Below are positions 4,015 through 32,000 of a stretch of 32,000 bases of DNA, in pieces; the stretch's first letter is position 1; each line of letters begins with the position of its first letter. The notes under the pieces are model-generated. The model worked only from the letters and a program-made list of their open reading frames with translations, had not been told where the DNA came from and ran no database searches. Origin of the DNA: Candidatus Helarchaeota ASGARD archaeon Hel_GB_B (GTDB taxonomy: Archaea > Asgardarchaeota > Lokiarchaeia > Helarchaeales > HEL-GB-B); contig SUPR01000026.1 in the NCBI GenBank assembly GCA_005191425.1, forward strand, positions 1-32,000. Reading direction: 5' to 3'. A program made the translations under genes and the position numbers.

Positions 4015-4437
4015 TTAAATACTGTATATTTCACTTCCTGAAAAAATCTTTATGCCGGCATCTTTTAATAAGGTAGATGCTTTTTCTAAATCATTAACTC
4101 GCATTAATATTATGGCTGTTTTTGAGGTCAATGTTGAATATAAATATTCAATGTTGATATTATTTTCTCCCATTAAATTAGCAATTCTATGGAGACCCCC
4201 AGGTTTATCTTCAACTTCAAATGCTAAGACATCCGTTTCAGAAACAAGGTAATTTGCATTTCGTAAAACTTCAATACATTTATCTGGATTATTTACGATA
4301 ATTCGTAGTATTCCATAATCTGCAGTTTCAGCCACAGTTAAAGCCCGAATATTTATTTTGTTATTTTCAAGCAGTTCTGTAAACTTTGCCAATACTCCCG
4401 GCTCATTAGGGAGAAATACAGAAACTTGTTTTACCAT
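4015..4437 (-). CDS. Tandem ACT-domain protein (type commonly found next to paaK)
   Basis: QVSVFLPNEPGVLAK and EVEDKPGGLHRIA double-ACT signature; lies directly downstream of paaK. Confidence 0.9.
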   Translation of the reverse strand: MVKQVSVFLPNEPGVLAKFTELLENNKINIRALTVAETADYGILRIIVNNPDKCIEVLRNANYLVSETDVLAFEVEDKPGGLHRIANLMGENNINIEYLYSTLTSKTAIILMRVNDLEKASTLLKDAGIKIFSGSEIYSI

Positions 4438-4476
4438 AAAACATCATCTCTTTTTTTAAATATTTGGAAAAAAATT

Positions 4477-5793
4477 TTAAATATTTTTTGTTCGTAAATC
4501 AATAACTCTTTTTGCTTTTCCTATGCTCCTCTCTATTTTACCTGGTGCCACTAATTCTACATTTGCATGAATCTGTAAGCTAGAATATAGTCGTTGCTCG
4601 ATATTTTTCTTAAAATCTTCCATTTCCGAAACTTTATCTGAAAAAGCTTCAGGTGTGACTTCTACTTTCAAAATCAAACGGTCTAAAATATCTCGATCAA
4701 TAATTATTTGATAATTTTCTGAAACTCCTGGTATTTTCATGAGTTGATATTCAACTTCCGATGGAAATACATTGATCCCCCGGATTATAAGCATATCATC
4801 TGCGCGTCCTATAACTTTTCTCATTCTTATGTGCCATCTACCGCAATTACATTTTTCTTCATTTAATACAGTAATATCATTTGTTAGATATCTTAAAAGA
4901 GGAATTCCTTCTTTCGTTAATGTAGTAAAAACCAATGCACCTTGTTCCCCCATGTTTTTTTGTTCACCATTTTCTGGGTCAATAATTTCTGGGATAAAAT
5001 GATCTTCCCAAATATGTAAGCCTGCTTTTTCGGGGCATTCGATTGACACTCCTGGTCCACATAGCTCTGAAAGTCCATAAATGTCAAATGCATCGATATG
5101 TAATGCATCTTCGATTTTAGACCTTAGAGCTTCACTCCACGGCTCTGCTCCAAAGATACCTACTCTTAAACTCAGAGAATCCACATCAATATCCAGATTT
5201 TTTAGGTATTCTGCAATATATAGTGAATACGATGGTGTACATGTTAATACAGTCGATTTAAAATCTTGCATAATTAAGATCTGTCGCTCGGTATTTCCAC
5301 CAGAAATAGGAATTACCGTTGCTCCAATTTTCTCTGCTCCATAATGAAATCCCAAACCACCTGTAAATAGTCCATATCCATAGGCATTTTGGATAATGTC
5401 TTCTTTTGTTACATTGGTTGCCATAATTGTTCTAGCCATTAATTCTGTCCATGTTTCTATATCTTTAGCTGTATAACCAACAACTGTCGGTTTTCCAGTT
5501 GTTCCGGACGAAGCATGAATTCTGACGATGTCCTTCATTGGAACTGCGAACATGTTAAACGGATAATTATCTCTCAAATCTTGTTTATATGTAATCGGAA
5601 TTTTGATAATATCGTCTTTTGTTTTTATATCATCGGGGTGTAAATTATTTTCTTTGAATTTCTTATTATAAAAGGGGACATTATCATAACAATATTTTAC
5701 AATTGCCCGTAATCTTTTGTTTTGAATTTCGTCTAACTCTTTTCTATTCTTTAATTCCATTTCCTTATTCCAATATTCATATCTTTTTGACAT
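4477..5793 (-). CDS. paaK: Phenylacetate-CoA ligase
   Basis: [63 protein letters not shown] and GKAKRVID. Confidence 0.92.
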
Positions 5794-6377: not shown

Positions 6378-8312
6378 GTGAATAAACACCAAAAAATTTC
6401 AAAAATAAATAAAATAATAGATGTGATTAATGTGGTAATTCCTAGTTTTGCTCTTGATTCGCCCGGTGAAAAAGTATTTTTACTAGGAAATGAAGCAATT
6501 GCGAGAGGTGCATTAGAAGCGGGTGTCCGGGTTGTAGCTGGCTATCCAGGTACTCCATCTACTGAAATCGTAGAAACAATCAGTAAAATGGTACATTATT
6601 ATCCTGATATTTATGTAGAATGGTCTATAAATGAGAAAGTTGCTTTTGAAACGGCATTTGGTGGTCAAATGTGTGGACTCAGGTCTGCAGTTAGTTTAAA
6701 ACATGTCGGTCTAAATGTTGCAGCAGACCCATTTTTGACTGCATCATATGCTGGCGCAAAAGGTGGCTTTGTAATTTTAGACGCAGATGACCCTAATTGT
6801 TATTCATCTCAAAATGAACAAGATAATAGATTATTTGCAAGACATGCTTTATGTCCTGTTTTCGAACCATTAAATGTTAATGAAGCTAAAGAAATGACAA
6901 AATTTGCATTCGATTTTTCAGAAAAATTTCAGACAATAGTTTTACTTAGGTCAACAACTCGATTGAGTCATTCAAGAGGCGATGTTATACTTGGAGAAAT
7001 TAAGCCAATAAAAAAAAGGGGAGCATTTGATTTTAATAAAGAAAGATGGACATTTTTACCTGTTAATGCAAGAAAATATAGAAAAATTATGCTTGAAAGG
7101 TTTCATAAAATTGAGAATGCAGTAAATGATATACCATTTAATAATTTACATCAAATTGATGGTAAAGAAATTGGAATTATTGCATCTGGTCTACCAAATG
7201 CATATGTAATCGATTATTTGAAGGATAACAAATTAGAAGATGAAATTTCTTATTTAAAAATAGCTACATCTTATCCTCCTCCTAAAAAATTGATCGAACA
7301 AATGATTATCGATTTAAAACGTGTGCTTGTAATTGAAGAACTAGAACCGTTTATTGAAGATTTTGTAAAGATATATGCTAAAGAAATAAACCCCTCCCTT
7401 GAAGTCGTGGGAAAAGAGATTGTCCCGCGAAATGGTGAATTAAATCCACAGATTATTCATTCAGTTATTAACAAATTTTTGAATAAAAATGATTTAATTA
7501 ATAATAATAACATAAAATTTGATATCATGGCTCCACCTCGACCTCCAGTATTATGTCCTGGCTGTCCACATAGGGCAACTTTTTATGCATTAAAAAAAGC
7601 AGAAAAAAGGTCTAAGAGTAGATTTATTTACAGTTCAGATATTGGGTGTTATACACTTGGATTTTACCCACCAATCGAAACCATTCATACTTGTCTTTGT
7701 ATGGGTGGGTCTATTGGAATGGCAAATGGAATATCTAAATCAGGTGAAACCAACCCAATTTTTGCAATTTTAGGCGATTCCACATTTTTTCATTCTGGGA
7801 TCCCCTCATTAGCCAATCTCGTTTATAATAAAAGTAAAGTTAATGTGCTGGTACTTGACAATTTATCTACTGCCATGACTGGATTTCAAGACCATCCTGG
7901 AACCGGAGTCCGAATAACTGGTGAAAAAACTACGCGAATTCTTATTGAAAATATCGGTAAAGGGTTAGGTGTTGAATTCATTAGAGTTTTTGACCCCTAT
8001 GATTTAAAAAATAGTATTAATACTTTAATTGAAGCCATAAATTATAGTAATGGCCCAACTTTATTAATTTCTCGCCGTCAATGTTCCCTATTAGCAACTC
8101 GAATTAAGAAAAAGTCTGGAGAAAAAATTAATATATATAAAATTGACAATGAAAAATGTACTGGCTGTAGAATTTGCACCTCAACTTTCGGTTGCCCAGC
8201 TTTTTCTATTAATGAAGAAAAAAACGAAATAGAAATAGTCGAAAGTATGTGCTCAGGTTGTGGGGTGTGTGTAGAAATTTGCCCAGAAAAAGCAATTTAT
8301 AAAGTTGAATAA
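6378..8312 (+). CDS. iorA: Indolepyruvate:ferredoxin oxidoreductase alpha subunit (true start may be GTG 6423 or 6432)
   Basis: LLGNEAIARG, GYPGTPSTE, NEKVAFE, KHVGLNVAAD, SSQNEQD, CPGCPHR, DIGCYTLG, TPP motif GDSTFFHSG, and C-terminal CxxCxxC ferredoxin motifs. Confidence 0.93.
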   Translation: MNKHQKISKINKIIDVINVVIPSFALDSPGEKVFLLGNEAIARGALEAGVRVVAGYPGTPSTEIVETISKMVHYYPDIYVEWSINEKVAFETAFGGQMCGLRSAVSLKHVGLNVAADPFLTASYAGAKGGFVILDADDPNCYSSQNEQDNRLFARHALCPVFEPLNVNEAKEMTKFAFDFSEKFQTIVLLRSTTRLSHSRGDVILGEIKPIKKRGAFDFNKERWTFLPVNARKYRKIMLERFHKIENAVNDIPFNNLHQIDGKEIGIIASGLPNAYVIDYLKDNKLEDEISYLKIATSYPPPKKLIEQMIIDLKRVLVIEELEPFIEDFVKIYAKEINPSLEVVGKEIVPRNGELNPQIIHSVINKFLNKNDLINNNNIKFDIMAPPRPPVLCPGCPHRATFYALKKAEKRSKSRFIYSSDIGCYTLGFYPPIETIHTCLCMGGSIGMANGISKSGETNPIFAILGDSTFFHSGIPSLANLVYNKSKVNVLVLDNLSTAMTGFQDHPGTGVRITGEKTTRILIENIGKGLGVEFIRVFDPYDLKNSINTLIEAINYSNGPTLLISRRQCSLLATRIKKKSGEKINIYKIDNEKCTGCRICTSTFGCPAFSINEEKNEIEIVESMCSGCGVCVEICPEKAIYKVE

Positions 8313-9091: not shown

Positions 9092-9916
9092 TTATTTATA
9101 ATTTTTTACAAGATTTTTTCCTATTTCAAGAGCTTTTAAGTTTACTTCCACTATTTTTGAGCTGAATAGTTTTTTAATCGCATTTTTAATAGATTCTTCT
9201 TTTAATGGTATTTTATTTGTCCCTAATAAAGCTCCAATCATTATTGTATTTGTCATTCGGATATCTCCCAGTTCAATCGCAGACTTCGATGCCTGTATAA
9301 TGAAACTATTCTTAGAGACATTTAAAAGTACGTTCTTTATTTCAGATAATTCTGGATAACTTATTTCCTTAACTAATGTAATAGCATTTTGACTACAGAT
9401 ATCCATGCACCTCTTACATCCAGTACAACCTTCCAAGATTTGACATATTCCATTTGTTATTTTTGAAGCTGGAAAATCTATTACCGCTAATAAATTTGAA
9501 TTTTTATAGTAATAATTTACATAACAATTAATTTTGCAATTTCCACAGCCTATACAAACTTCTGGGTCTACTTTAATATGCTGGCCCCTAAATAATATTG
9601 GTGGAATTATTACTTCATTATTTACTAAAAGTATTCCATCTTTTTTTAAATAATCTATATACCTTAATGCTTCAGCTAATTCGAATGCAATAATGACATC
9701 AGCAGAATGTTTATTAACAAGCGGACTTTCTACTGTAGGCCCAAATCGCAAATGTACAATTACAGAGCCGCCTCTTTGCGCCATACCATGCGTTTCTGCA
9801 GTCCGGAGTTTATAACTTATGTCTAAATCAAGTACCGCCCAACCAATCACTGTTGATGCCCTAATTACTCCTTGACCACCTGTTCCTACAATTACAATAG
9901 AAAAATTCTTGCCCAT
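9092..9916 (-). CDS. iorB: Indolepyruvate oxidoreductase beta subunit with an inserted 2[4Fe-4S] ferredoxin domain
   Basis: GTGGQG, AETHGMAQRGGSV, ADVIIAFELAEALR and MTNTIMIGA; internal CIGCGNCKINC and CTGCKRCMDIC. Confidence 0.88.
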   Translation of the reverse strand: MGKNFSIVIVGTGGQGVIRASTVIGWAVLDLDISYKLRTAETHGMAQRGGSVIVHLRFGPTVESPLVNKHSADVIIAFELAEALRYIDYLKKDGILLVNNEVIIPPILFRGQHIKVDPEVCIGCGNCKINCYVNYYYKNSNLLAVIDFPASKITNGICQILEGCTGCKRCMDICSQNAITLVKEISYPELSEIKNVLLNVSKNSFIIQASKSAIELGDIRMTNTIMIGALLGTNKIPLKEESIKNAIKKLFSSKIVEVNLKALEIGKNLVKNYK

Positions 9917-24354: not shown

Positions 24355-25032
24355 ATGATAAAAATGAGTGAATTTGAGGAACAAAAAAAGATAGTTTTAG
24401 ATGCAGCTAAGACTTTTTTAAGAACCGGGCTTACTGTAGGGACTTCAGGTAATATTAGTCTAAGGACAGGCAAAAAAGCCACTACTATGGCAATAACTCC
24501 TAGTAGTAGAGAATATGACGAATTGACTTTGGACGATATAATAATTGTAGACTTCTCAGATGAAGAAGATAATATCAAAGTTATTGAAGGAAATTGGTCT
24601 CCATCTTCAGAAACAATTTTGCATTCATATATTTATAAAAAAAGAAAAAAGATTAACGCAATAATTCATTATCACCCAGTATTCTCAACAGCATGTGGTC
24701 TTGTTCTAGATGAATTACCTGCAATTCTTGATGACCAGACTTTTTTCCTTGGTGGAGCAATACCTGTTACAAAAGAATATGCAGTTTCTGGCTCGAAAGA
24801 GCTTGCTCGTCAAGTACAAGAACTTATTGCTAATACAAATGCAATAATTATTAGAAATCATGGTTCTATCGGAATTGGAAAAAACATTGAATATGCTTTT
24901 GAAGCATGTCAGTTATTGGAGAAAACCGCAAAGATTTATGTTTATGCTAAATTATTGGGTGGAAACATTAAATTTATGGACGAAAAGTCAATAAAAAATA
25001 ATATCGGCCTATTTAAAGCGATAAGAAAATAA
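24355..25032 (+). CDS. Class II aldolase/adducin family (fuculose-1-phosphate aldolase-like; start may be ATG 24364)
   Basis: GTSGNIS, ITPS, PSSE..LH..IY, IIHYHP and IIRNHG (Zn ligands). Confidence 0.9.
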   Translation: MIKMSEFEEQKKIVLDAAKTFLRTGLTVGTSGNISLRTGKKATTMAITPSSREYDELTLDDIIIVDFSDEEDNIKVIEGNWSPSSETILHSYIYKKRKKINAIIHYHPVFSTACGLVLDELPAILDDQTFFLGGAIPVTKEYAVSGSKELARQVQELIANTNAIIIRNHGSIGIGKNIEYAFEACQLLEKTAKIYVYAKLLGGNIKFMDEKSIKNNIGLFKAIRK

Positions 25033-25067
25033 ATTTTTCAAAAATTAATAAAATTAACTGACCTTTT

Positions 25068-26165
25068 ATGAATAAAAAAAACATAACCGTCCTATTTCAA
25101 AATCCGGACACTTTAGATTCGATTGAAATTAAAATTGAAAATAAAAATTATTATATAAGAGATATTGCCGAACAAATAATAGACAAATTTAATTTAAAAT
25201 CTCCTCCAATATTTTTTACGATTTTTAAAGACAAACCAACTGAAAATCAATATTTAGAAGAAAATGATAAATTAATTGATGTATTAGAAAAAAGATTAGA
25301 TGAAAAAATACCTATTTGGTGGCGGTCTAGTGATTTAAATGAAGACATTATGTATAATTTAAGAGTTAACAGATTTATTAAATCTGGATATAAAATCGAT
25401 ATAATCAAAAATAAGAATATTATGATCGTAGGTATTGGGCTATTAGGCTCAGAACTTGCTTTACATTGCGCCACAATTGGTATTAAAAATATTACGGTTA
25501 TTGATTATGGTTCTGTAGACTGGTATAATATTTATAGACAACCTTTATACACTAAAAATGATGTATTTAAAAGAAAAGTAGATGTGGCAAAAAATAAACT
25601 AGAATCAATAGGTGGAATAAATGTCAATTCAATATACATAGAAATTCCAAATTTTAATTCCTTGAATATAGAAAAAGATGTTGTTTTAAAGAACATCAAT
25701 ATATTAGAAAAAGCAGTAGAAAAAAATGACATAATTATCACCTCTTTGGATACTTTTAGTGCTAGAATGATAATTCAAATCCTTGCACTTGTCCATAATA
25801 AAATTTTAATAAATACAGCTGCAGGTCTTATCGGGGGGATTATTCAAATTATAAGACCTTTTCAAGACCCTTGTATTGGATGCGGTACATTTTATGATAG
25901 AAATCAAGAAACTGGTGCATGTACATTAGCTTCCTTTGGAACTCCTAAAATAATTGCTGGATTATGTATTGATGTCCTACTTGACTTAATAGAAAACAGA
26001 AAAATAGAATTTAATTATTTAAAATTCCTTCCAAATTACACTATTGAGACTAAAACTTTCTTTAAGGCAGATAATTGTCAATTCTGTGGTGAAAATGGCA
26101 TTGCTTCAGTGTACAATAAAAATTATAAAAAGGAATTACTCAACTGGTTATTTAATAATCATTAA
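25068..26165 (+). CDS. ThiF/MoeB/E1-like activating enzyme with an N-terminal beta-grasp-like domain
   Basis: GIGLLG, ID.G.VD..NIYRQ, KV, LDTFSAR, Zn site PCIGC...CQFC, and candidate catalytic Cys in ETGACT. Confidence 0.88.
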   Translation: MNKKNITVLFQNPDTLDSIEIKIENKNYYIRDIAEQIIDKFNLKSPPIFFTIFKDKPTENQYLEENDKLIDVLEKRLDEKIPIWWRSSDLNEDIMYNLRVNRFIKSGYKIDIIKNKNIMIVGIGLLGSELALHCATIGIKNITVIDYGSVDWYNIYRQPLYTKNDVFKRKVDVAKNKLESIGGINVNSIYIEIPNFNSLNIEKDVVLKNINILEKAVEKNDIIITSLDTFSARMIIQILALVHNKILINTAAGLIGGIIQIIRPFQDPCIGCGTFYDRNQETGACTLASFGTPKIIAGLCIDVLLDLIENRKIEFNYLKFLPNYTIETKTFFKADNCQFCGENGIASVYNKNYKKELLNWLFNNH

Positions 26166-26592: not shown

Positions 26593-27270
26593 ATGCAATC
26601 AAGTACCCTTATAAATCTAATAACTGGAATTTTAGAAGATTCAATGAAACTTTTAAAAAAGATAGAGAAAAATATAGACTATCAAGGTAAACTATTAAAT
26701 TCATTATCGGAAAAATTTGATGTAATAGGCGACAAAATTGAACAATCTTTTAATAATTTAAATAATGTCCAACTTGGGACTTTTTTTAGTGATATTTCAT
26801 CTCGATTTGACCTAATAGATGTAAACAAATTAAAAGAAATAGACGATGAAATTAATGATATTTCCAATATACTCCAAAAAAATTTTCAAATTCAAATGAT
26901 TTCTATTTTAAGAGAATATGTAGACCTTAACTTATCGTTCCCTACTCGTTCTGAATTAACTCAAAGAAGTTCATTTTTCAGGAAGTCAAATATAATTTCA
27001 ACTCCTTCTCATCACAGTTTTTCCAAAAAATCACAGAGCGTAGATACTAAAATAGAAGGTGATTGGTCGGAGAGTGAATTAGAAGGCGGGGAAATTTTTG
27101 AAAAAATAATAATTGGTTGGAAACGCCGAGATTTTGAGAAAGCTCAAGGTACAAAAGAAATTTTTATGAAAGCATGGAAGAAACTTTCCAGTTATGATAA
27201 AGCACAGATTAAAAATGGTGCTTGGAGTAAAAAATTAATCGATAAAATAAAGTTATTGGGGAGGAACTAA
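26593..27270 (+). CDS. Hypothetical protein upstream of the mcr operon
   Basis: 225-codon ORF with a coiled-coil-like N-half, Ser-rich linker and Trp-rich C-terminal domain of about 65 aa. Confidence 0.7.
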   Translation: MQSSTLINLITGILEDSMKLLKKIEKNIDYQGKLLNSLSEKFDVIGDKIEQSFNNLNNVQLGTFFSDISSRFDLIDVNKLKEIDDEINDISNILQKNFQIQMISILREYVDLNLSFPTRSELTQRSSFFRKSNIISTPSHHSFSKKSQSVDTKIEGDWSESELEGGEIFEKIIIGWKRRDFEKAQGTKEIFMKAWKKLSSYDKAQIKNGAWSKKLIDKIKLLGRN

Positions 27271-27502: not shown

Positions 27503-28885
27503 ATGAAGTATTCGGATAAAATAGATGTATTTGACGATATGGGAAATAATATTGCTGAGGATCTACCGATTGAGAGTTTATCACCATTAATAAATCCATT
27601 TATACTTGACATTTTGAACTTTTTTAAACGGACTGCATTTGTTAATCTTAAAAAGTTAGAATTCATGCTACAAAGCGGTCAGATTGGGTACACAAGTTCT
27701 ATGAAGCAAGATGAAATTCAAATATCCTGTTATACCCGTCCTTGGGAAATAATTGAAAATGCAGAAGCTTTAATTGACCTAATCAAGAAAAAGATCCAAG
27801 TATCTGAGAATGATGATTCAAATGTTGTTTTGCTACCAGGAAATGAAGTATTAATGGTACAACTCCCTAAAGAACGGATTAGAGCTGCTGCAGGACGCGA
27901 CTCAGCTTTTTCAATTGCAGGTGAAGCCACTTTACAAGCTATATCTGAAGTTCATAATATAACTCCTTTGTCCGACCCTGATGGTTGTAATATTTTAAAA
28001 AGTATCATTTTTGGAAGATATCCACAAACAAGGACATTTCCCCCAAGAAATCCGTTGTTTACACTTCTCCACCCGTTTCATACTCAAGAAGGATTAGGAA
28101 ATGGATTTAGGGGCATTACAATTAATCATATTGTCGCTTTAACACAAAAAAGAACTTTTGACGCGGTAATCTTAAGTACAATTCTTGAACAAGCTTCCCA
28201 ATTTGAAATGGGAAATACTATTGGATGGTTTGAACGGTATAACTTGCTCGGAATGGCATATCAAAGTTTCAATGCAGACCGCGTCTTACTTGACCTTATT
28301 GATGAAAATAAAAATGGGACGGTAGGTGATGTGGTTACTTCCTTAGTAAGAATTGGAATTGAAGATGATATTATTAAACCAAAAAAGAGGTCTTATCCTT
28401 ATAAATTGTTCTCTGGATATAAAATATATTCAGTAAAAGATTATGATATGTGGAATGCATATACTTGTGCTGGACTGTTAGCAGCAGTTCTTGTAAATTG
28501 TGGTGCAAGTAGAAGTGCACAATCTATATCTTCAGCTATTACTAGTTTTTGTGATTTATTAATGTTTGAATCTGGTGGCCTACCCGATCCTGATTGCGGA
28601 AGGGTTATGGGTACAGGCCTTGGACTAAGTCATTTTAATCATGACATTTTCAGTATTGGTGGAACCGGTCTTTTATCATTAGATAATGTTTTAATTAGAA
28701 ATAATTCGGGTTTTGTTGCACCTTGTCTTGCAGCTGCAATGAGTTTAGATAGTGGAACTCAATTATATCGCCCCGAAGTTACTTCTGAAATATTTTTTAA
28801 AATTAGGGAAGCTGACCCGATTTTTAAAGGCCCTCTTATTAATAAAGTTGTTGAGTCAGCTCTAGAAATCAAACATAAAATCTAA
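27503..28885 (+). CDS. mcrB: Methyl/alkyl-coenzyme M reductase beta subunit homologue (divergent)
   Basis: DKIDVFDD.G, LSPL.NP, KRT..VNL, GRYPQ, QEG.G, LSTILEQ..QFEMG..IG.FER, WNAY..AG and AAAMSLD.GTQ are colinear with McrB. Confidence 0.93.
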   Translation: MKYSDKIDVFDDMGNNIAEDLPIESLSPLINPFILDILNFFKRTAFVNLKKLEFMLQSGQIGYTSSMKQDEIQISCYTRPWEIIENAEALIDLIKKKIQVSENDDSNVVLLPGNEVLMVQLPKERIRAAAGRDSAFSIAGEATLQAISEVHNITPLSDPDGCNILKSIIFGRYPQTRTFPPRNPLFTLLHPFHTQEGLGNGFRGITINHIVALTQKRTFDAVILSTILEQASQFEMGNTIGWFERYNLLGMAYQSFNADRVLLDLIDENKNGTVGDVVTSLVRIGIEDDIIKPKKRSYPYKLFSGYKIYSVKDYDMWNAYTCAGLLAAVLVNCGASRSAQSISSAITSFCDLLMFESGGLPDPDCGRVMGTGLGLSHFNHDIFSIGGTGLLSLDNVLIRNNSGFVAPCLAAAMSLDSGTQLYRPEVTSEIFFKIREADPIFKGPLINKVVESALEIKHKI

Positions 28886-28899
28886 GGTGTGCATTAGAA

Positions 28900-29709
28900 A
28901 TGCCAATGAGTGAACGAAGAAAAAAGAAAAAAATTAAAGAATTTGAACCACAATACTATCCTGAATGTGATTACGTTGCTGAAAGACGCCGTAAAATTAT
29001 AAACCCAAATCGAAGACTAACAAAATTACGTCACATTCCTGACGATAATATAATTTCTTTATTAGGACATAGAGCTCCGGGTGGACTATACACTTCTATT
29101 CATCCTCCACTTGATGAATTGATGGAATCTTTTGACCCAATTAAAGAATTGATAGTCCCAAGTGATGGAGCAAAAATGGGTGATCGTATACGATTTGTCC
29201 AAATAATTGATTCATTTTGGAGACCACCTGTTGCACCATGGTTAAGGCATAAGTTTTATTTTACAAGGTTTAGAGGGGCTGATGTTGTAATTGATGCTGA
29301 AAGAACACTATTAGAAATGAGAGAACGTGATGTTGAAGCAGCAACAAAACTTCTCCTTGAAATGGAATTATTTGATCCCTCTAGAACTTCCTTAAAATCT
29401 GTTTCGCATGGTGGATATTCACATAGATTAGATGAAAACGAATTATCTTTTGATTTGCGGAGAAGATGTATTCTTGACAAAGAATCAGGGCATATAATTT
29501 ACGTCAAAAATATGTCTGGCGAAATATTAGACAAACCTATTTCATTGGGTTTTCCTATAGCTGATGAAGATCTGAAAACTATTGACGTTACTTGGCGCTG
29601 GGACAGTTCTCAATATAAGTCAAAAAGCGAAATCTTAATGGTCTTAAGTCGTATAGCTGAGAACCGTATTTTGGGAGGTTTTAAACCTAATATGTTAAAT
29701 TATAGGTGA
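28900..29709 (+). CDS. mcrG: Methyl/alkyl-coenzyme M reductase gamma subunit homologue (divergent)
   Basis: PQYYP, LLGHRAPG, SIHPPL, GAK.GDRIR..Q..DS, RFRGAD, RERD.E, FDP.R and RLDEN...FD.RRR. Confidence 0.92.
   Translation: MPMSERRKKKKIKEFEPQYYPECDYVAERRRKIINPNRRLTKLRHIPDDNIISLLGHRAPGGLYTSIHPPLDELMESFDPIKELIVPSDGAKMGDRIRFVQIIDSFWRPPVAPWLRHKFYFTRFRGADVVIDAERTLLEMRERDVEAATKLLLEMELFDPSRTSLKSVSHGGYSHRLDENELSFDLRRRCILDKESGHIIYVKNMSGEILDKPISLGFPIADEDLKTIDVTWRWDSSQYKSKSEILMVLSRIAENRILGGFKPNMLNYR
29704..29709 (+). promoter_or_regulatory. RBS-like AGGTGA for mcrA, overlapping the mcrG stop
   Basis: AGGTGA 6 nt upstream of ATG 29716; supports translational coupling of the operon. Confidence 0.55.
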
Positions 29710-29715
29710 ATTAAA

Positions 29716-31539
29716 ATGAGTGGACCGTTAAAAAAAGGAAAATTACCAAAAGAATTAACAAGTCAAATGGAAGCAACAGCAGCTGCCTCTCAATATCTTC
29801 GACAGGCAGTAAAAAATATGCGTGATTTTATACCACTTGAAAAGCAACGCCGAATATATAAAGATCTTGAAAAAATGTTTGGTGTTGACCCGTTAAACCT
29901 AATTGATGAAAAAATGTATATGAGAAAAGGATTTAACCAGTCCGCAGCGATAATGAAAAATAAAGAATTAGGTAGATTAATCGCTTTAGACCGTTTTATT
30001 CCAATGTATGACCCAAGTGTAAGTGAACCAATTGGTCATCAGCAATTATTTCCATATAAAATATCTGGTACTGACGAAATTGTATCTGGAAATTCTCTTC
30101 ATTGTTTCAATAATGTCGCGATGCAACAGTTATTTGATGATGTCAGACGCACTACAATTTTAAATCTTGATGTCCCTCACAAAGTGATTCAAGTGCGAGC
30201 AAGTAAAGAGGTTACACCTGAAACTATTGATCATTTTCTTAAAACTTTACAACATACAATTGCAGGTGGTACTGTTTCACTTGATCAGTTTGCTGATATA
30301 AATCCTGAATTAACCAGAGATGCATATTGTAAAATAATCACGGGAAATGACGAATTAAGAGAATTAATTGATAATAGATTTTCTATTGACATTAATGCCG
30401 GCTTTCATAAATCTAGAGCTGAAAAGTTAAAACATGCAATTGGTGATACAATACATTTAGTTGTTAGAGCACCAACAATACTAGTAAGAGCATTAGATAA
30501 TTCAGTTGCTTTTAAATGGGCCGGAATCCAGAGTACTCTGGCATTTATCGTTGCTTATCGTTTGACCAAAGATTCTAACCTTGCAGATATTTCATATGCA
30601 ACTCAATATGCTAATACCATAGCTCTTGGAGAACCTACATGGCAATCATTAGGCGGACATTATAATTCAATCGCCGGTATTCCTTTTGGCTATATAGCTG
30701 ATATGTGTCAAGGTGATTCTCAATTACCTTTAAGACCTTTTATGGAAATTACAAATGAAGACCCCAAATTGTCTCGTGAATATTTAAAAAAGTCTATTGG
30801 GTGTGTAGGCGTTATCGCTCCCATTTTAACAAATTTTTGGGATGGATATCAACTGTCTGGTGGTGCCAATATCCTTGATAATGTTGTTATAGACACCTTT
30901 ACTGGTGGTATATTTGATGATTTTATTGATATTATGAATGATATGATGAACAAATATTTTTCGCGTATTGTCAAAATTGGCATGAATTTAATGCCAACTC
31001 GCTGGTATAATTTAAGATGGCCAGTTGAAAATATGGTAAATATTGTTATGGAAACAATGGAAAAATATCCATCGGCTATGGAAACTTTAAAACTAGGTAT
31101 TCAAAAAATGTATATAATTGGGCTCGTAGCAGGGATAATGGCATCTCTCTTATCTGGAAGTTCAACTGCTGGATTATGGGCTATTGATTATGCAATCAGT
31201 CTTTTAGTAAAAGAGGGTTGGTGCCGCACAGGGACAACTGGCTATGAAATTATCAATCAATTAGGGCTCCCTTATTCATGTTCATTACGTATTGAAGAAG
31301 GTGGATTACCAGAACTAAGAGGTATGAATAATTTTCATCAAATCCATTCAATTGGTAGCGCAGTCCCCAGAATCGCTGTATTATATGCAGCTGCACTAGC
31401 CCGGGGGGATGCTTGGGTATCAAGCCCTCTAATTAAAGTAGTTTTCAATGACCCTCACCTTTCATTTGATTTTAAAGACCCAATATCTGCTATTATTAAA
31501 GGTACAAAAGGTGAATTTAAACCTAAAGGAGAAAGTTAA
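29716..31539 (+). CDS. mcrA: Methyl/alkyl-coenzyme M reductase alpha subunit homologue, ACR-like and highly degenerate at the active site
   Basis: IPMYDP, LH..NN.AMQQ..DD.RRT, KEVTPETI, TGNDE, G.PFGY.AD.CQ, SGG, GLPYSCSLRIEEGGLPELRG, ARGDAW and PLIKV.F.D..L.FDF. Confidence 0.93.
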   Translation: MSGPLKKGKLPKELTSQMEATAAASQYLRQAVKNMRDFIPLEKQRRIYKDLEKMFGVDPLNLIDEKMYMRKGFNQSAAIMKNKELGRLIALDRFIPMYDPSVSEPIGHQQLFPYKISGTDEIVSGNSLHCFNNVAMQQLFDDVRRTTILNLDVPHKVIQVRASKEVTPETIDHFLKTLQHTIAGGTVSLDQFADINPELTRDAYCKIITGNDELRELIDNRFSIDINAGFHKSRAEKLKHAIGDTIHLVVRAPTILVRALDNSVAFKWAGIQSTLAFIVAYRLTKDSNLADISYATQYANTIALGEPTWQSLGGHYNSIAGIPFGYIADMCQGDSQLPLRPFMEITNEDPKLSREYLKKSIGCVGVIAPILTNFWDGYQLSGGANILDNVVIDTFTGGIFDDFIDIMNDMMNKYFSRIVKIGMNLMPTRWYNLRWPVENMVNIVMETMEKYPSAMETLKLGIQKMYIIGLVAGIMASLLSGSSTAGLWAIDYAISLLVKEGWCRTGTTGYEIINQLGLPYSCSLRIEEGGLPELRGMNNFHQIHSIGSAVPRIAVLYAAALARGDAWVSSPLIKVVFNDPHLSFDFKDPISAIIKGTKGEFKPKGES

Positions 31540-31559
31540 ATACTGGATTAGTGGTCAAA

Positions 31560-32000
31560 ATGGAAGATAAAAATAAAAAATATGTTAATGAACCCTGGTG
31601 GAAAAAAGAATTTAAAGATGGATGGTGGAAAGAAGTTTCCTGGATACACCCCCAAGATACTGAACCATCTGGAGTTAGTTTATTCATTGATTATATGCTT
31701 GATAAGGCAATTATCACTCCAGACGCTGTTAAAATAGCAAGTTGGATACCCCATAGGTTAATATTACTGGAAATTGTCCACCCTTTAAAAGGAACTGAGC
31801 GGTTATCTTTTATGATCTCGCCAACTTCTGTTACTCCTGGAATCCCTGACGTAACACCTGATGTAATTGTAACTTACGATTATTATGACCTTGCTAAATT
31901 CTTAATTGGAAGAGAAAAAGATTTCACTATGTCTTTTTGGAAGGGACATTCTAGAATATATGGTAATCTTACTGCATTGATTGATTTAGCTGATATTCTT
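31560..32000 (+). CDS. Partial ORF (not in the ORF track, runs off the window) with an SCP2-like lipid/sterol-binding domain
   Basis: My translation gives 147 uninterrupted codons from ATG 31560: MEDKNKKYVNEPWWKKEFKDGWWKEVSW...PDVIVTYDYYDLAKFLIGREKDFTMSFWKGHSRIYGNLTALIDLADIL. The last 50 aa fit the SCP2 pattern aD.tit...dl..ll.G..d...af..G.lri.Gdl.al..l..ll. Confidence 0.72.
   Translation, partial: MEDKNKKYVNEPWWKKEFKDGWWKEVSWIHPQDTEPSGVSLFIDYMLDKAIITPDAVKIASWIPHRLILLEIVHPLKGTERLSFMISPTSVTPGIPDVTPDVIVTYDYYDLAKFLIGREKDFTMSFWKGHSRIYGNLTALIDLADIL

Follow-up and report, generated by a model that had tools for sequence, protein, structure and literature searches.

An intact mcrBGA operon of the Helarchaeales with a divergent coenzyme pocket and a fourth gene of predicted SCP2 fold

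Introduction

What does a methyl-coenzyme M reductase (MCR) do when most of the residues that contact its nickel cofactor, F430, have been replaced? This question is raised by an mcrBGA operon near the end of the window, by which we mean the whole analyzed stretch of 32,000 nucleotides, namely positions 1–32,000 of the 38,112-nt contig SUPR01000026.1 (G000:C103 below) of Candidatus Helarchaeota archaeon Hel_GB_B (GenBank assembly GCA_005191425.1). The source genome G000 (3.54 Mb, 28% G+C, 93.7% estimated completeness) was compared with the genomes of six further species from the order Helarchaeales, G001 to G006. On the strength of their mcr genes, members of this order are frequently cited as Asgard archaea "capable of hydrocarbon cycling". 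The mcr genes that Seitz et al. 2019 (PMC6478937) reported are of the kind called canonical-type here, and their paper does not discuss the cofactor sites. We find that the operon in the window is intact and under strong purifying selection, and that it falls, within the alkyl-coenzyme M (CoM) reductase (ACR) branch, into a monophyletic Helarchaeales clade with a long stem; we propose, tentatively, that its product is a derived ACR that still works with F430.

The core residue observation has already been published. Lemaire and Wagner 2022 (Biochemistry 61:805, PMC9118554) noted Leu at the axial nickel site in some Helarchaeota and Lokiarchaeota sequences, together with "even more drastic substitutions" among the residues that bind the cofactor and the coenzymes. 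Their divergent MCR homologues (from transcriptome assemblies, ~40% identical to Methanothermobacter marburgensis MCR) are very probably members of the same clade as the protein studied here (the query). An earlier inspection of the window from its letters alone (the sequence-only reading) had treated these replacements as potentially new, and in that respect it was anticipated. To their alignment-level remark the present analysis adds a definition of the clade, a genome inventory, a fourth gene and a selection analysis; what is new is the association with a gene of predicted SCP2 fold, the lost conservation of the pocket, the gene inventory and the finding that four of the six closest relatives have Gln at position 147. 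On the first three of these, the literature searched yielded nothing.

The operon is intact and maintained

All four genes of the operon lie on the forward strand. The mcrB-like gene (window positions 27,503–28,885) encodes 460 amino acids with the Pfam domains MCR_beta_N and MCR_beta, the mcrG-like gene (28,900–29,709) encodes 269 amino acids with MCR_gamma, and the mcrA-like gene (29,716–31,539) encodes 607 amino acids with MCR_alpha_N and MCR_alpha and has an N-terminal helical extension of ~44 residues; together the three MCR subunits comprise 1,336 residues. They are followed by gene X (174 amino acids), which begins at 31,551, leaves the window at 32,000 and ends at contig position 32,075. 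The intergenic gaps are 14 nt (mcrB-mcrG), 6 nt (mcrG-mcrA) and 11 nt (mcrA-X), and the families PF02241, PF02783, PF02240, PF02745 and PF02249 all scored above their cut-offs (E-values 1e-78 to 1e-7). With the reading frames intact, the gaps small and the Pfam domain sets full, the sequence-only description of mcrBGA as intact and tightly coupled stands. The AlphaFold 2 (AF2) model of the alpha subunit (mean predicted local distance difference test score, pLDDT, 80.7) superimposes on 1mro_A with a VIA-align Z of 44.5 and a root-mean-square deviation (rmsd) of 1.9 Å over 538 aligned residues.

All four genes are under strong purifying selection. Between G000 and G001 the proportion of nonsynonymous differences (pN) is 0.10–0.15 and that of synonymous differences (pS), which is saturated, is 0.61–0.73, giving a dN/dS ratio of about 0.1 or lower, and when G000 is set against three assemblies that match it at 99% nucleotide identity, the four genes show 28 synonymous versus 13–16 nonsynonymous codon changes. 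These values bear out the earlier suggestion of a maintained complex. Three other assemblies (99% identity) and several metagenomes contain the same operon with the same flanks. The metagenomes in which the stretch was found come from several studies of hydrothermal vents and marine sediments; no RNA dataset containing it was listed in the sequencing-run search, a result with no bearing on expression.

Most residues of the coenzyme pocket are replaced

Pocket residues were numbered as in M. marburgensis MCR by HMMER pairwise alignment to 3pot_A (alpha), 3pot_B (beta) and 3pot_C (gamma). In alpha, the axial nickel ligand Gln147 is replaced by Leu189 (codon CTT, 30,280–30,282, forward strand). 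R225 becomes K267, K256/H257 become Q297/Y298 and R270/R271 become S311/L312; F330 and Y333 correspond to I386 and N389 in a loop with one extra residue, F443/Y444 to T507/T508, N481 to S545 and H484 to S548. Two alpha residues are kept, namely G445 at the thioglycine site (G509) and Q400 (Q463). In beta, Y367 is replaced by F383 (codon at 28,649), F361 by H377, G368/G369 by S384/I385 and H379 by N395, and H364 is kept as H380. In gamma, the L117-S118-G119 loop that touches the F430 carboxylates has become D132-A133-E134, with R120 kept as R135, and H156 and H158 are now G171 and Y173. Every substitution that the sequence-only reading had listed, Gln147 to Leu189 included, was reproduced by these alignments.

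Is Leu189 truly the residue beneath the nickel? There is no insertion or deletion between the GG motif (residues 184–185) and Pro197, and the loop is as long as in canonical enzymes; Leu189 thus truly occupies the position of Gln147, and Gln191 (codon CAG, 30,286–30,288, forward strand) occupies that of His149. An alignment slip at the axial site was considered and is ruled out by the same lack of indels. Residues 183–203 are coil in the AF2 alpha model.

The extent of replacement was measured against the residues within 5 Å of each ligand in a published M. ruminantium MCR model (PMC12842094, Table 1). The query keeps 8 of the 25 alpha/alpha' contacts to F430 and 1 of the 11 to coenzyme B (CoB), whereas the ACRs of Ca. 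Methanoliparum, of Syntropharchaeia and of canonical type from Helarchaeales keep 15–16 and 5–7, respectively. The query's pattern thus goes beyond normal ACR divergence, and the pocket has been rebuilt, as had been claimed, to a degree that exceeds the supported ACRs. The positions that bind the CoB threonine phosphate (alpha R270 and R271, alpha' R225, K256 and H257, and beta H379) are now S311, L312, K267, Q297, Y298 and N395. At the CoM site gamma R135 is kept, and alpha N389 and beta F383 have no hydroxyl; Y333 is missing in supported ACRs as well.

Not all of the listed changes are as unusual as they had been taken to be. The lack of Tyr333, the replacement of F443/Y444, N481S and a non-basic residue 270 are ordinary ACR traits common to Ca. 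Methanoliparum (where F443W-type and Y444A-type changes are found). The changes specific to the group are Q147L, H149Q, R225K, K256Q, H257Y, R271L, L320D and H484S in alpha, Y367F, G368S and G369I in beta, and L117D, G119E, H156G and H158Y in gamma.

A long-stemmed clade within the ACR branch

Relatives were sorted into tiers by identity to the query: tier a at 75–99%, tier b at 51–55% and tier c, the canonical-type Helarchaeales ACRs, at 42–46%; Methanoliparia and Syntropharchaeia homologues are at ~39% and canonical MCRs at ~34%. A search against representatives at 50% clustering yielded few further full-length sequences and changed this set little. In a quick IQ-TREE run (LG+G4, rooted on canonical MCR, with SH-like approximate likelihood ratio test (SH-aLRT) support only) tier a, tier b, the sequence P0021 and a sequence of the G003 type, 19 rows in all, group together with an SH-aLRT of 100; the stem of this clade measures 0.49 substitutions per site. 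Tier c and the Ca. Methanoliparum ACR group fall in its sister group, and the divergent clade is nested in the ACR group, which agrees with the alkyl-CoM reductase branch to which the operon had first been assigned. Four of the seven species genomes (G000, G001, G002 and G003) have the divergent type only, G004 and G005 the canonical type only, and G006 both.

Position 147 is Leu in the query, in tier b, in P0021 and in the G003 type, and Gln in 4 of the 6 tier-a proteins. Because of that distribution Leu147 is probably ancestral to the divergent clade, although not all of the closest relatives of the query have it. Position 149 is Gln in all 17 tier-a and tier-b sequences and in P0021, and Lys in the G003-type relative. 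Gly445 and Gln400 are retained across tiers a and b, gamma Arg120 is retained in tier a, and all tier-a and tier-b sequences have an acidic residue at gamma positions 117 and 119. At the Gln400 position, the methyl-glutamine site adjoining F430 (alpha residue 463, window 31,102–31,104), all canonical-type Helarchaeales ACRs have His and P0021 has Glu, in place of the Gln seen in tiers a and b.

A fourth gene of predicted SCP2 fold

A homologue of X (33–85% identity) follows or adjoins mcrA in every fetched Helarchaeales mcr locus in which that flank is assembled. The AF2 model of X (pLDDT 80.7) matched many SCP2 structures in Foldseek with E-values of 1e-6 to 1e-4, probability 1.0 and target-normalized template-modeling (TM) scores of 0.6–0.73, and on this model X is predicted to have the SCP2 fold, that of lipid and alkyl-chain carriers. 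Sequence profiles detect the relation faintly: PF02036 matches 3 of 11 X homologues (best E 0.0031), the query X not among them, and a profile search of the PDB with X gave a weak SCP2 match (E 0.036). The operon region of the Ca. Methanoliparum ACR contains an A2-like ABC ATPase gene and an SCP2 gene that Pfam recognizes. No link between SCP2 and ACRs was found in the literature searched. The predicted alpha-X complex scored 0.21 against a mark of 0.32, which speaks neither for nor against binding.

Is it still an F430 enzyme?

The explanation that we favor, with a probability of about 0.4, is that the operon encodes a derived ACR that is still of the F430 type and alkyl-thiol-forming, and that acts on large hydrophobic substrates with salvaged F430. 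The Helarchaeales-specific clade to which it belongs split from the ordinary ACRs on a long branch and rebuilt its coenzyme pocket. The substrates would be long-chain alkanes or alkyl chains, and the putative SCP2 protein X would hand them to the enzyme. The nickel cofactor would be seated without a protein lower ligand, or with water, at a site where Leu and Gln alternate among close relatives. F430 and CoM would be salvaged from the community, because the cell cannot make them, and the A2 ATPase would be the sole retained helper. A working nickel enzyme is favored because A2 is retained and, in related types, linked to the operon, Gly445 and Gln400 are kept, selection is strong and the ancestry is that of an ACR. 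The predicted fold of X, together with the A2-like and SCP2 genes in the operon region of the long-chain-alkane organism Ca. Methanoliparum, lends this reading support. An active ACR without the axial Gln is possible because the ethyl-CoM reductase (ECR) of Ca. Ethanoperedens has Met in its place (PMC9118554); the sequence-only statement that characterized enzymes keep this Gln was thus mistaken.

The A2 (AtwA) gene of G000 lies at C157:8115–9698 and scores 678 bits against an NCBIfam equivalog cut-off of 517. In tier a (G000 and G001) it is located elsewhere in the genome, away from the mcr operon, and in several other loci it is directly 3' of mcrBGA(-X): in tier b (G002:C15:2898–4481), in the G003 type (G003:C27:57573–59156), and in P0021 and Ca. 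Methanoliparum (the remaining two loci, L033:7054–8673 and L032:7922–9538). The genome of the query also encodes MCH, a marker of the H4MPT pathway, and several HdrB-like proteins.

Several findings weigh against F430 chemistry. In the pocket, the five-residue basic CoB-phosphate cluster is lost save one conservative Lys, neither of the active-site Tyr hydroxyls survives (the residues being alpha N389 and beta F383), and two acidic residues stand in the gamma loop that touches the F430 carboxylates. The canonical contact positions are, moreover, no more conserved in the divergent clade than the protein average: 52% of them are invariant versus 59% of all columns in tier a, and 55% versus 56% in tier b, as compared with 76% versus 31% in canonical MCR and 81% versus 43% in tier c. 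Finally, searches of G000 with hidden Markov models (HMMs) and by tblastn with the orthologues of related genomes found neither the cofactor genes for CfbB, CfbC, CfbD, CfbE, HemB and HemD, nor cysteate synthase, ComDE and ComA, nor McrC, McrD, Mmp7 and Mmp17; the lack of mcrC and mcrD had already been remarked on from the letters alone. G001 and G003 (each 93–94% complete) show the same gaps in HMM searches, and no importer of F430 is known.

Could these genes simply have been missed? The relative G005 has a cfbB-C-D-E-hemD cluster as well as genes for HemB, for cysteate synthase with ComDE, for Mmp7 with Mmp17, and for McrD, and these genes are spread over several separate loci, some of them on megabase contigs. 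Because the orthologues lie so far apart, chance omission of the set from three genomes that are 93–94% complete is very unlikely. The G005 cfbBCDE-hemD cluster itself sits on a small contig of 31 kb (C12).

The gaps are also wider than the divergent clade. Of the seven species genomes, G005 alone gave matches to HemB and CfbD, and of the five tested for CfbC it was again the only one with a match. TIGR03266, the marker for the YcaO-type enzyme that modifies the thioglycine site, was found in none of the seven. G002, G004 and G006 are without HemB and CfbD yet have Mmp7 and ComD (weak in G004), the tier-b genome G002 retaining ComDE, Mmp7 and McrD, and G004 and G006 have canonical-type ACRs. 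Missing F430 synthesis is therefore no peculiarity of the divergent enzyme, and F430 salvage may be common in the order Helarchaeales. In the literature searched we found no statement that Helarchaeales with divergent ACRs lack F430 biosynthesis.

The alternative that survives best holds that the MCR fold has been repurposed, so that BGA, A2 and the SCP2 protein would work without Ni(I)-F430, CoM and CoB, using another salvaged cofactor or none, and would carry out a different chemistry on a hydrophobic ligand. The gaps in the inventories of G000, G001 and G003 all favor it, as do the several separate loci at which G005 and G002 hold cofactor and activation genes, the loss of the axial ligand with Leu and Gln toggling within tier a, the few F430 and CoB contacts that are left, the lost special conservation of the pocket and the acidic gamma residues 117 and 119. 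One idea is that a corrinoid has taken the place of F430, since its amide side chains would suit the acidic residues and its low-valent state would be favored without a lower ligand. A B12-binding radical SAM protein and a B12-binding domain protein are encoded at G000:C103:35534–36958 and G000:C157:5446–6909; as HemB was not found in this genome, corrinoid salvage is implied, and corrinoids are presumably taken up. Nevertheless, A2 has no known role other than MCR activation, and it has been retained and, in sister types, linked to the operon; Gly445 and Gln400 also remain, F430 biosynthesis is missing from genomes with canonical-type ACRs as well, and the tier-b genome G002 has held on to ComDE, Mmp7 and McrD. 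We regard such repurposing as the main rival and a serious one, somewhat less probable than the F430 reading. We give about the same weight to its fuller form, in which a lineage-specific complex of BGA, SCP2 and A2, with another cofactor (possibly a corrinoid) or none, would act on hydrophobic substrates and be a new enzyme class derived from ACRs, in organisms where A2 is the one remaining gene of all those known for making MCR cofactors and activating the enzyme.

A more conservative alternative is that the enzyme is canonical after all, with the alpha' loop re-registered so that Gln191 lies under the nickel of an ordinary ACR, as the sequence-only reading had suggested it might. The invariance of Gln at the His149 equivalent in 17 of 17 tier-a and tier-b sequences and in P0021 fits this view. 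However, the loop has no indel, and in the canonical MCR model residues 144–147, 150 and 151 are within 5 Å of F430 and residues 148 and 149 are not (PMC12842094); the G003-type relative has Leu147 with Lys149, and four tier-a relatives have Gln at both 147 and 149. Such a shift would also leave the lost CoB and CoM contacts unexplained, and we consider it improbable.

Equally poor are the prospects of a non-catalytic pseudoenzyme that would serve, with the SCP2 protein, as a hydrophobic-ligand binder, a storage protein or a regulator. In favor of it are the lost Tyr hydroxyls of catalysis, the lost axial ligand and coenzyme anchors, and a pocket conserved no better than average, but the three subunits, 1,336 residues in total, have been kept under strong purifying selection across a deep clade, and the A2 ATPase has been retained. 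The earlier suggestion of a regulatory partner for an active ACR encoded elsewhere also fails: the mcrA copy of the operon is the only one found in the 93.7%-complete G000, and the role of partner to a second ACR was accordingly ruled out. Finally, decay of a paralogue and an error of assembly or binning, for which the unusual residues alone speak, can both be dismissed on the intact frames, the low dN/dS and the recurrence of the operon with its flanks in synteny in other assemblies and metagenomes.

Comparison with known systems

How does the operon compare with its characterized and structurally solved relatives? The Ca. Methanoliparum ACR, which activates long-chain alkanes, was represented here by P0035 (it clusters at at least 90% with RZN64248.1); it falls in the sister ACR group at 39% identity. 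Unlike the query it keeps Gln147-Glu-His, R225, K256, H257 and R271, and it has 16 of the 25 F430 and 7 of the 11 CoB contacts.

The ECR of Ca. Ethanoperedens thermophilum (PDB 7B1S) is a solved MCR homologue without the axial Gln, and the query matches its fold with a Z of 41.0 and an rmsd of 2.2 Å. The Met of ECR can ligate nickel, however, and the query's Leu cannot; ECR, unlike the query, shows few changes at its coenzyme sites and has insertions that form a tunnel (PMC9118554).

The tier-c Helarchaeales ACRs are from the same order and share the mcrBGA-X layout and the SCP2-like gene (43–46% alpha identity), but they keep Gln147-Glu-His, R225, K256 and R271 in alpha, Y367-G368-G369 in beta and S118-G119-R120, H156 and H158 in gamma, and their pocket positions are highly conserved. 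With M. marburgensis MCR I (PDB 3POT, 1HBM and 1MRO; 32–35% identity) the query shares the three-subunit architecture, the fold, Gly445, Gln400, beta His364 and gamma Arg120, whereas the axial Gln, the active-site Tyr pair, the CoB phosphate cluster and most F430 contacts of that enzyme are replaced.

Neighboring genes

Upstream of the operon and on the same strand (window 24,355–26,165) are genes for a class II aldolase (225 aa) and a ThiF-family E1-like protein (365 aa), whose synteny is kept in the 99%-identical assemblies. Immediately 5' of mcrB lies a 225-aa open reading frame (26,593–27,270) that has no family match (a BhlA holin-like match is sub-threshold) and is kept in close strains. 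Just 3' of the operon (G000:C103:32470–34992) an 840-aa protein fuses a sugar-nucleotidyltransferase, LbH repeats and a phosphoglucomutase/phosphomannomutase.

Farther away, the window encodes a phenylacetate-CoA-ligase-like AMP-binding enzyme (AMP-binding and AMP-binding_C_2; 4,015–5,793, reverse strand) that adjoins a protein with a pair of ACT domains. Part of a 2-oxoacid:ferredoxin oxidoreductase, with POR_N, TPP_enzyme_C and Fer4 in one protein, is encoded at 6,378–8,312 (forward strand), and a POR gamma-like protein with Fer4 inserts at 9,092–9,916 (reverse strand); a PAP2 phosphatase gene lies between the two POR loci.

Implications

Among the four species genomes with only the divergent type, G000, G001 and G003 are without known CoM-synthesis genes, McrC, McrD and Mmp7, and all four are without the F430 and tetrapyrrole genes tested. 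The recurring SCP2 gene beside ACRs bears on a problem raised in a 2022 review (PMC9118554), namely how long-chain alkanes gain access to a buried active site. If F430 is still used, then an MCR-type enzyme runs without a protein axial ligand and without the CoB phosphate anchor, on salvaged cofactors, and metabolic inference from the presence of mcrA needs a cofactor caveat. If it is not, then predictions of alkane oxidation that are based on mcrA would be wrong for these lineages, and the MCR fold would have a second chemistry. Under either reading the question is now open to direct experiment.

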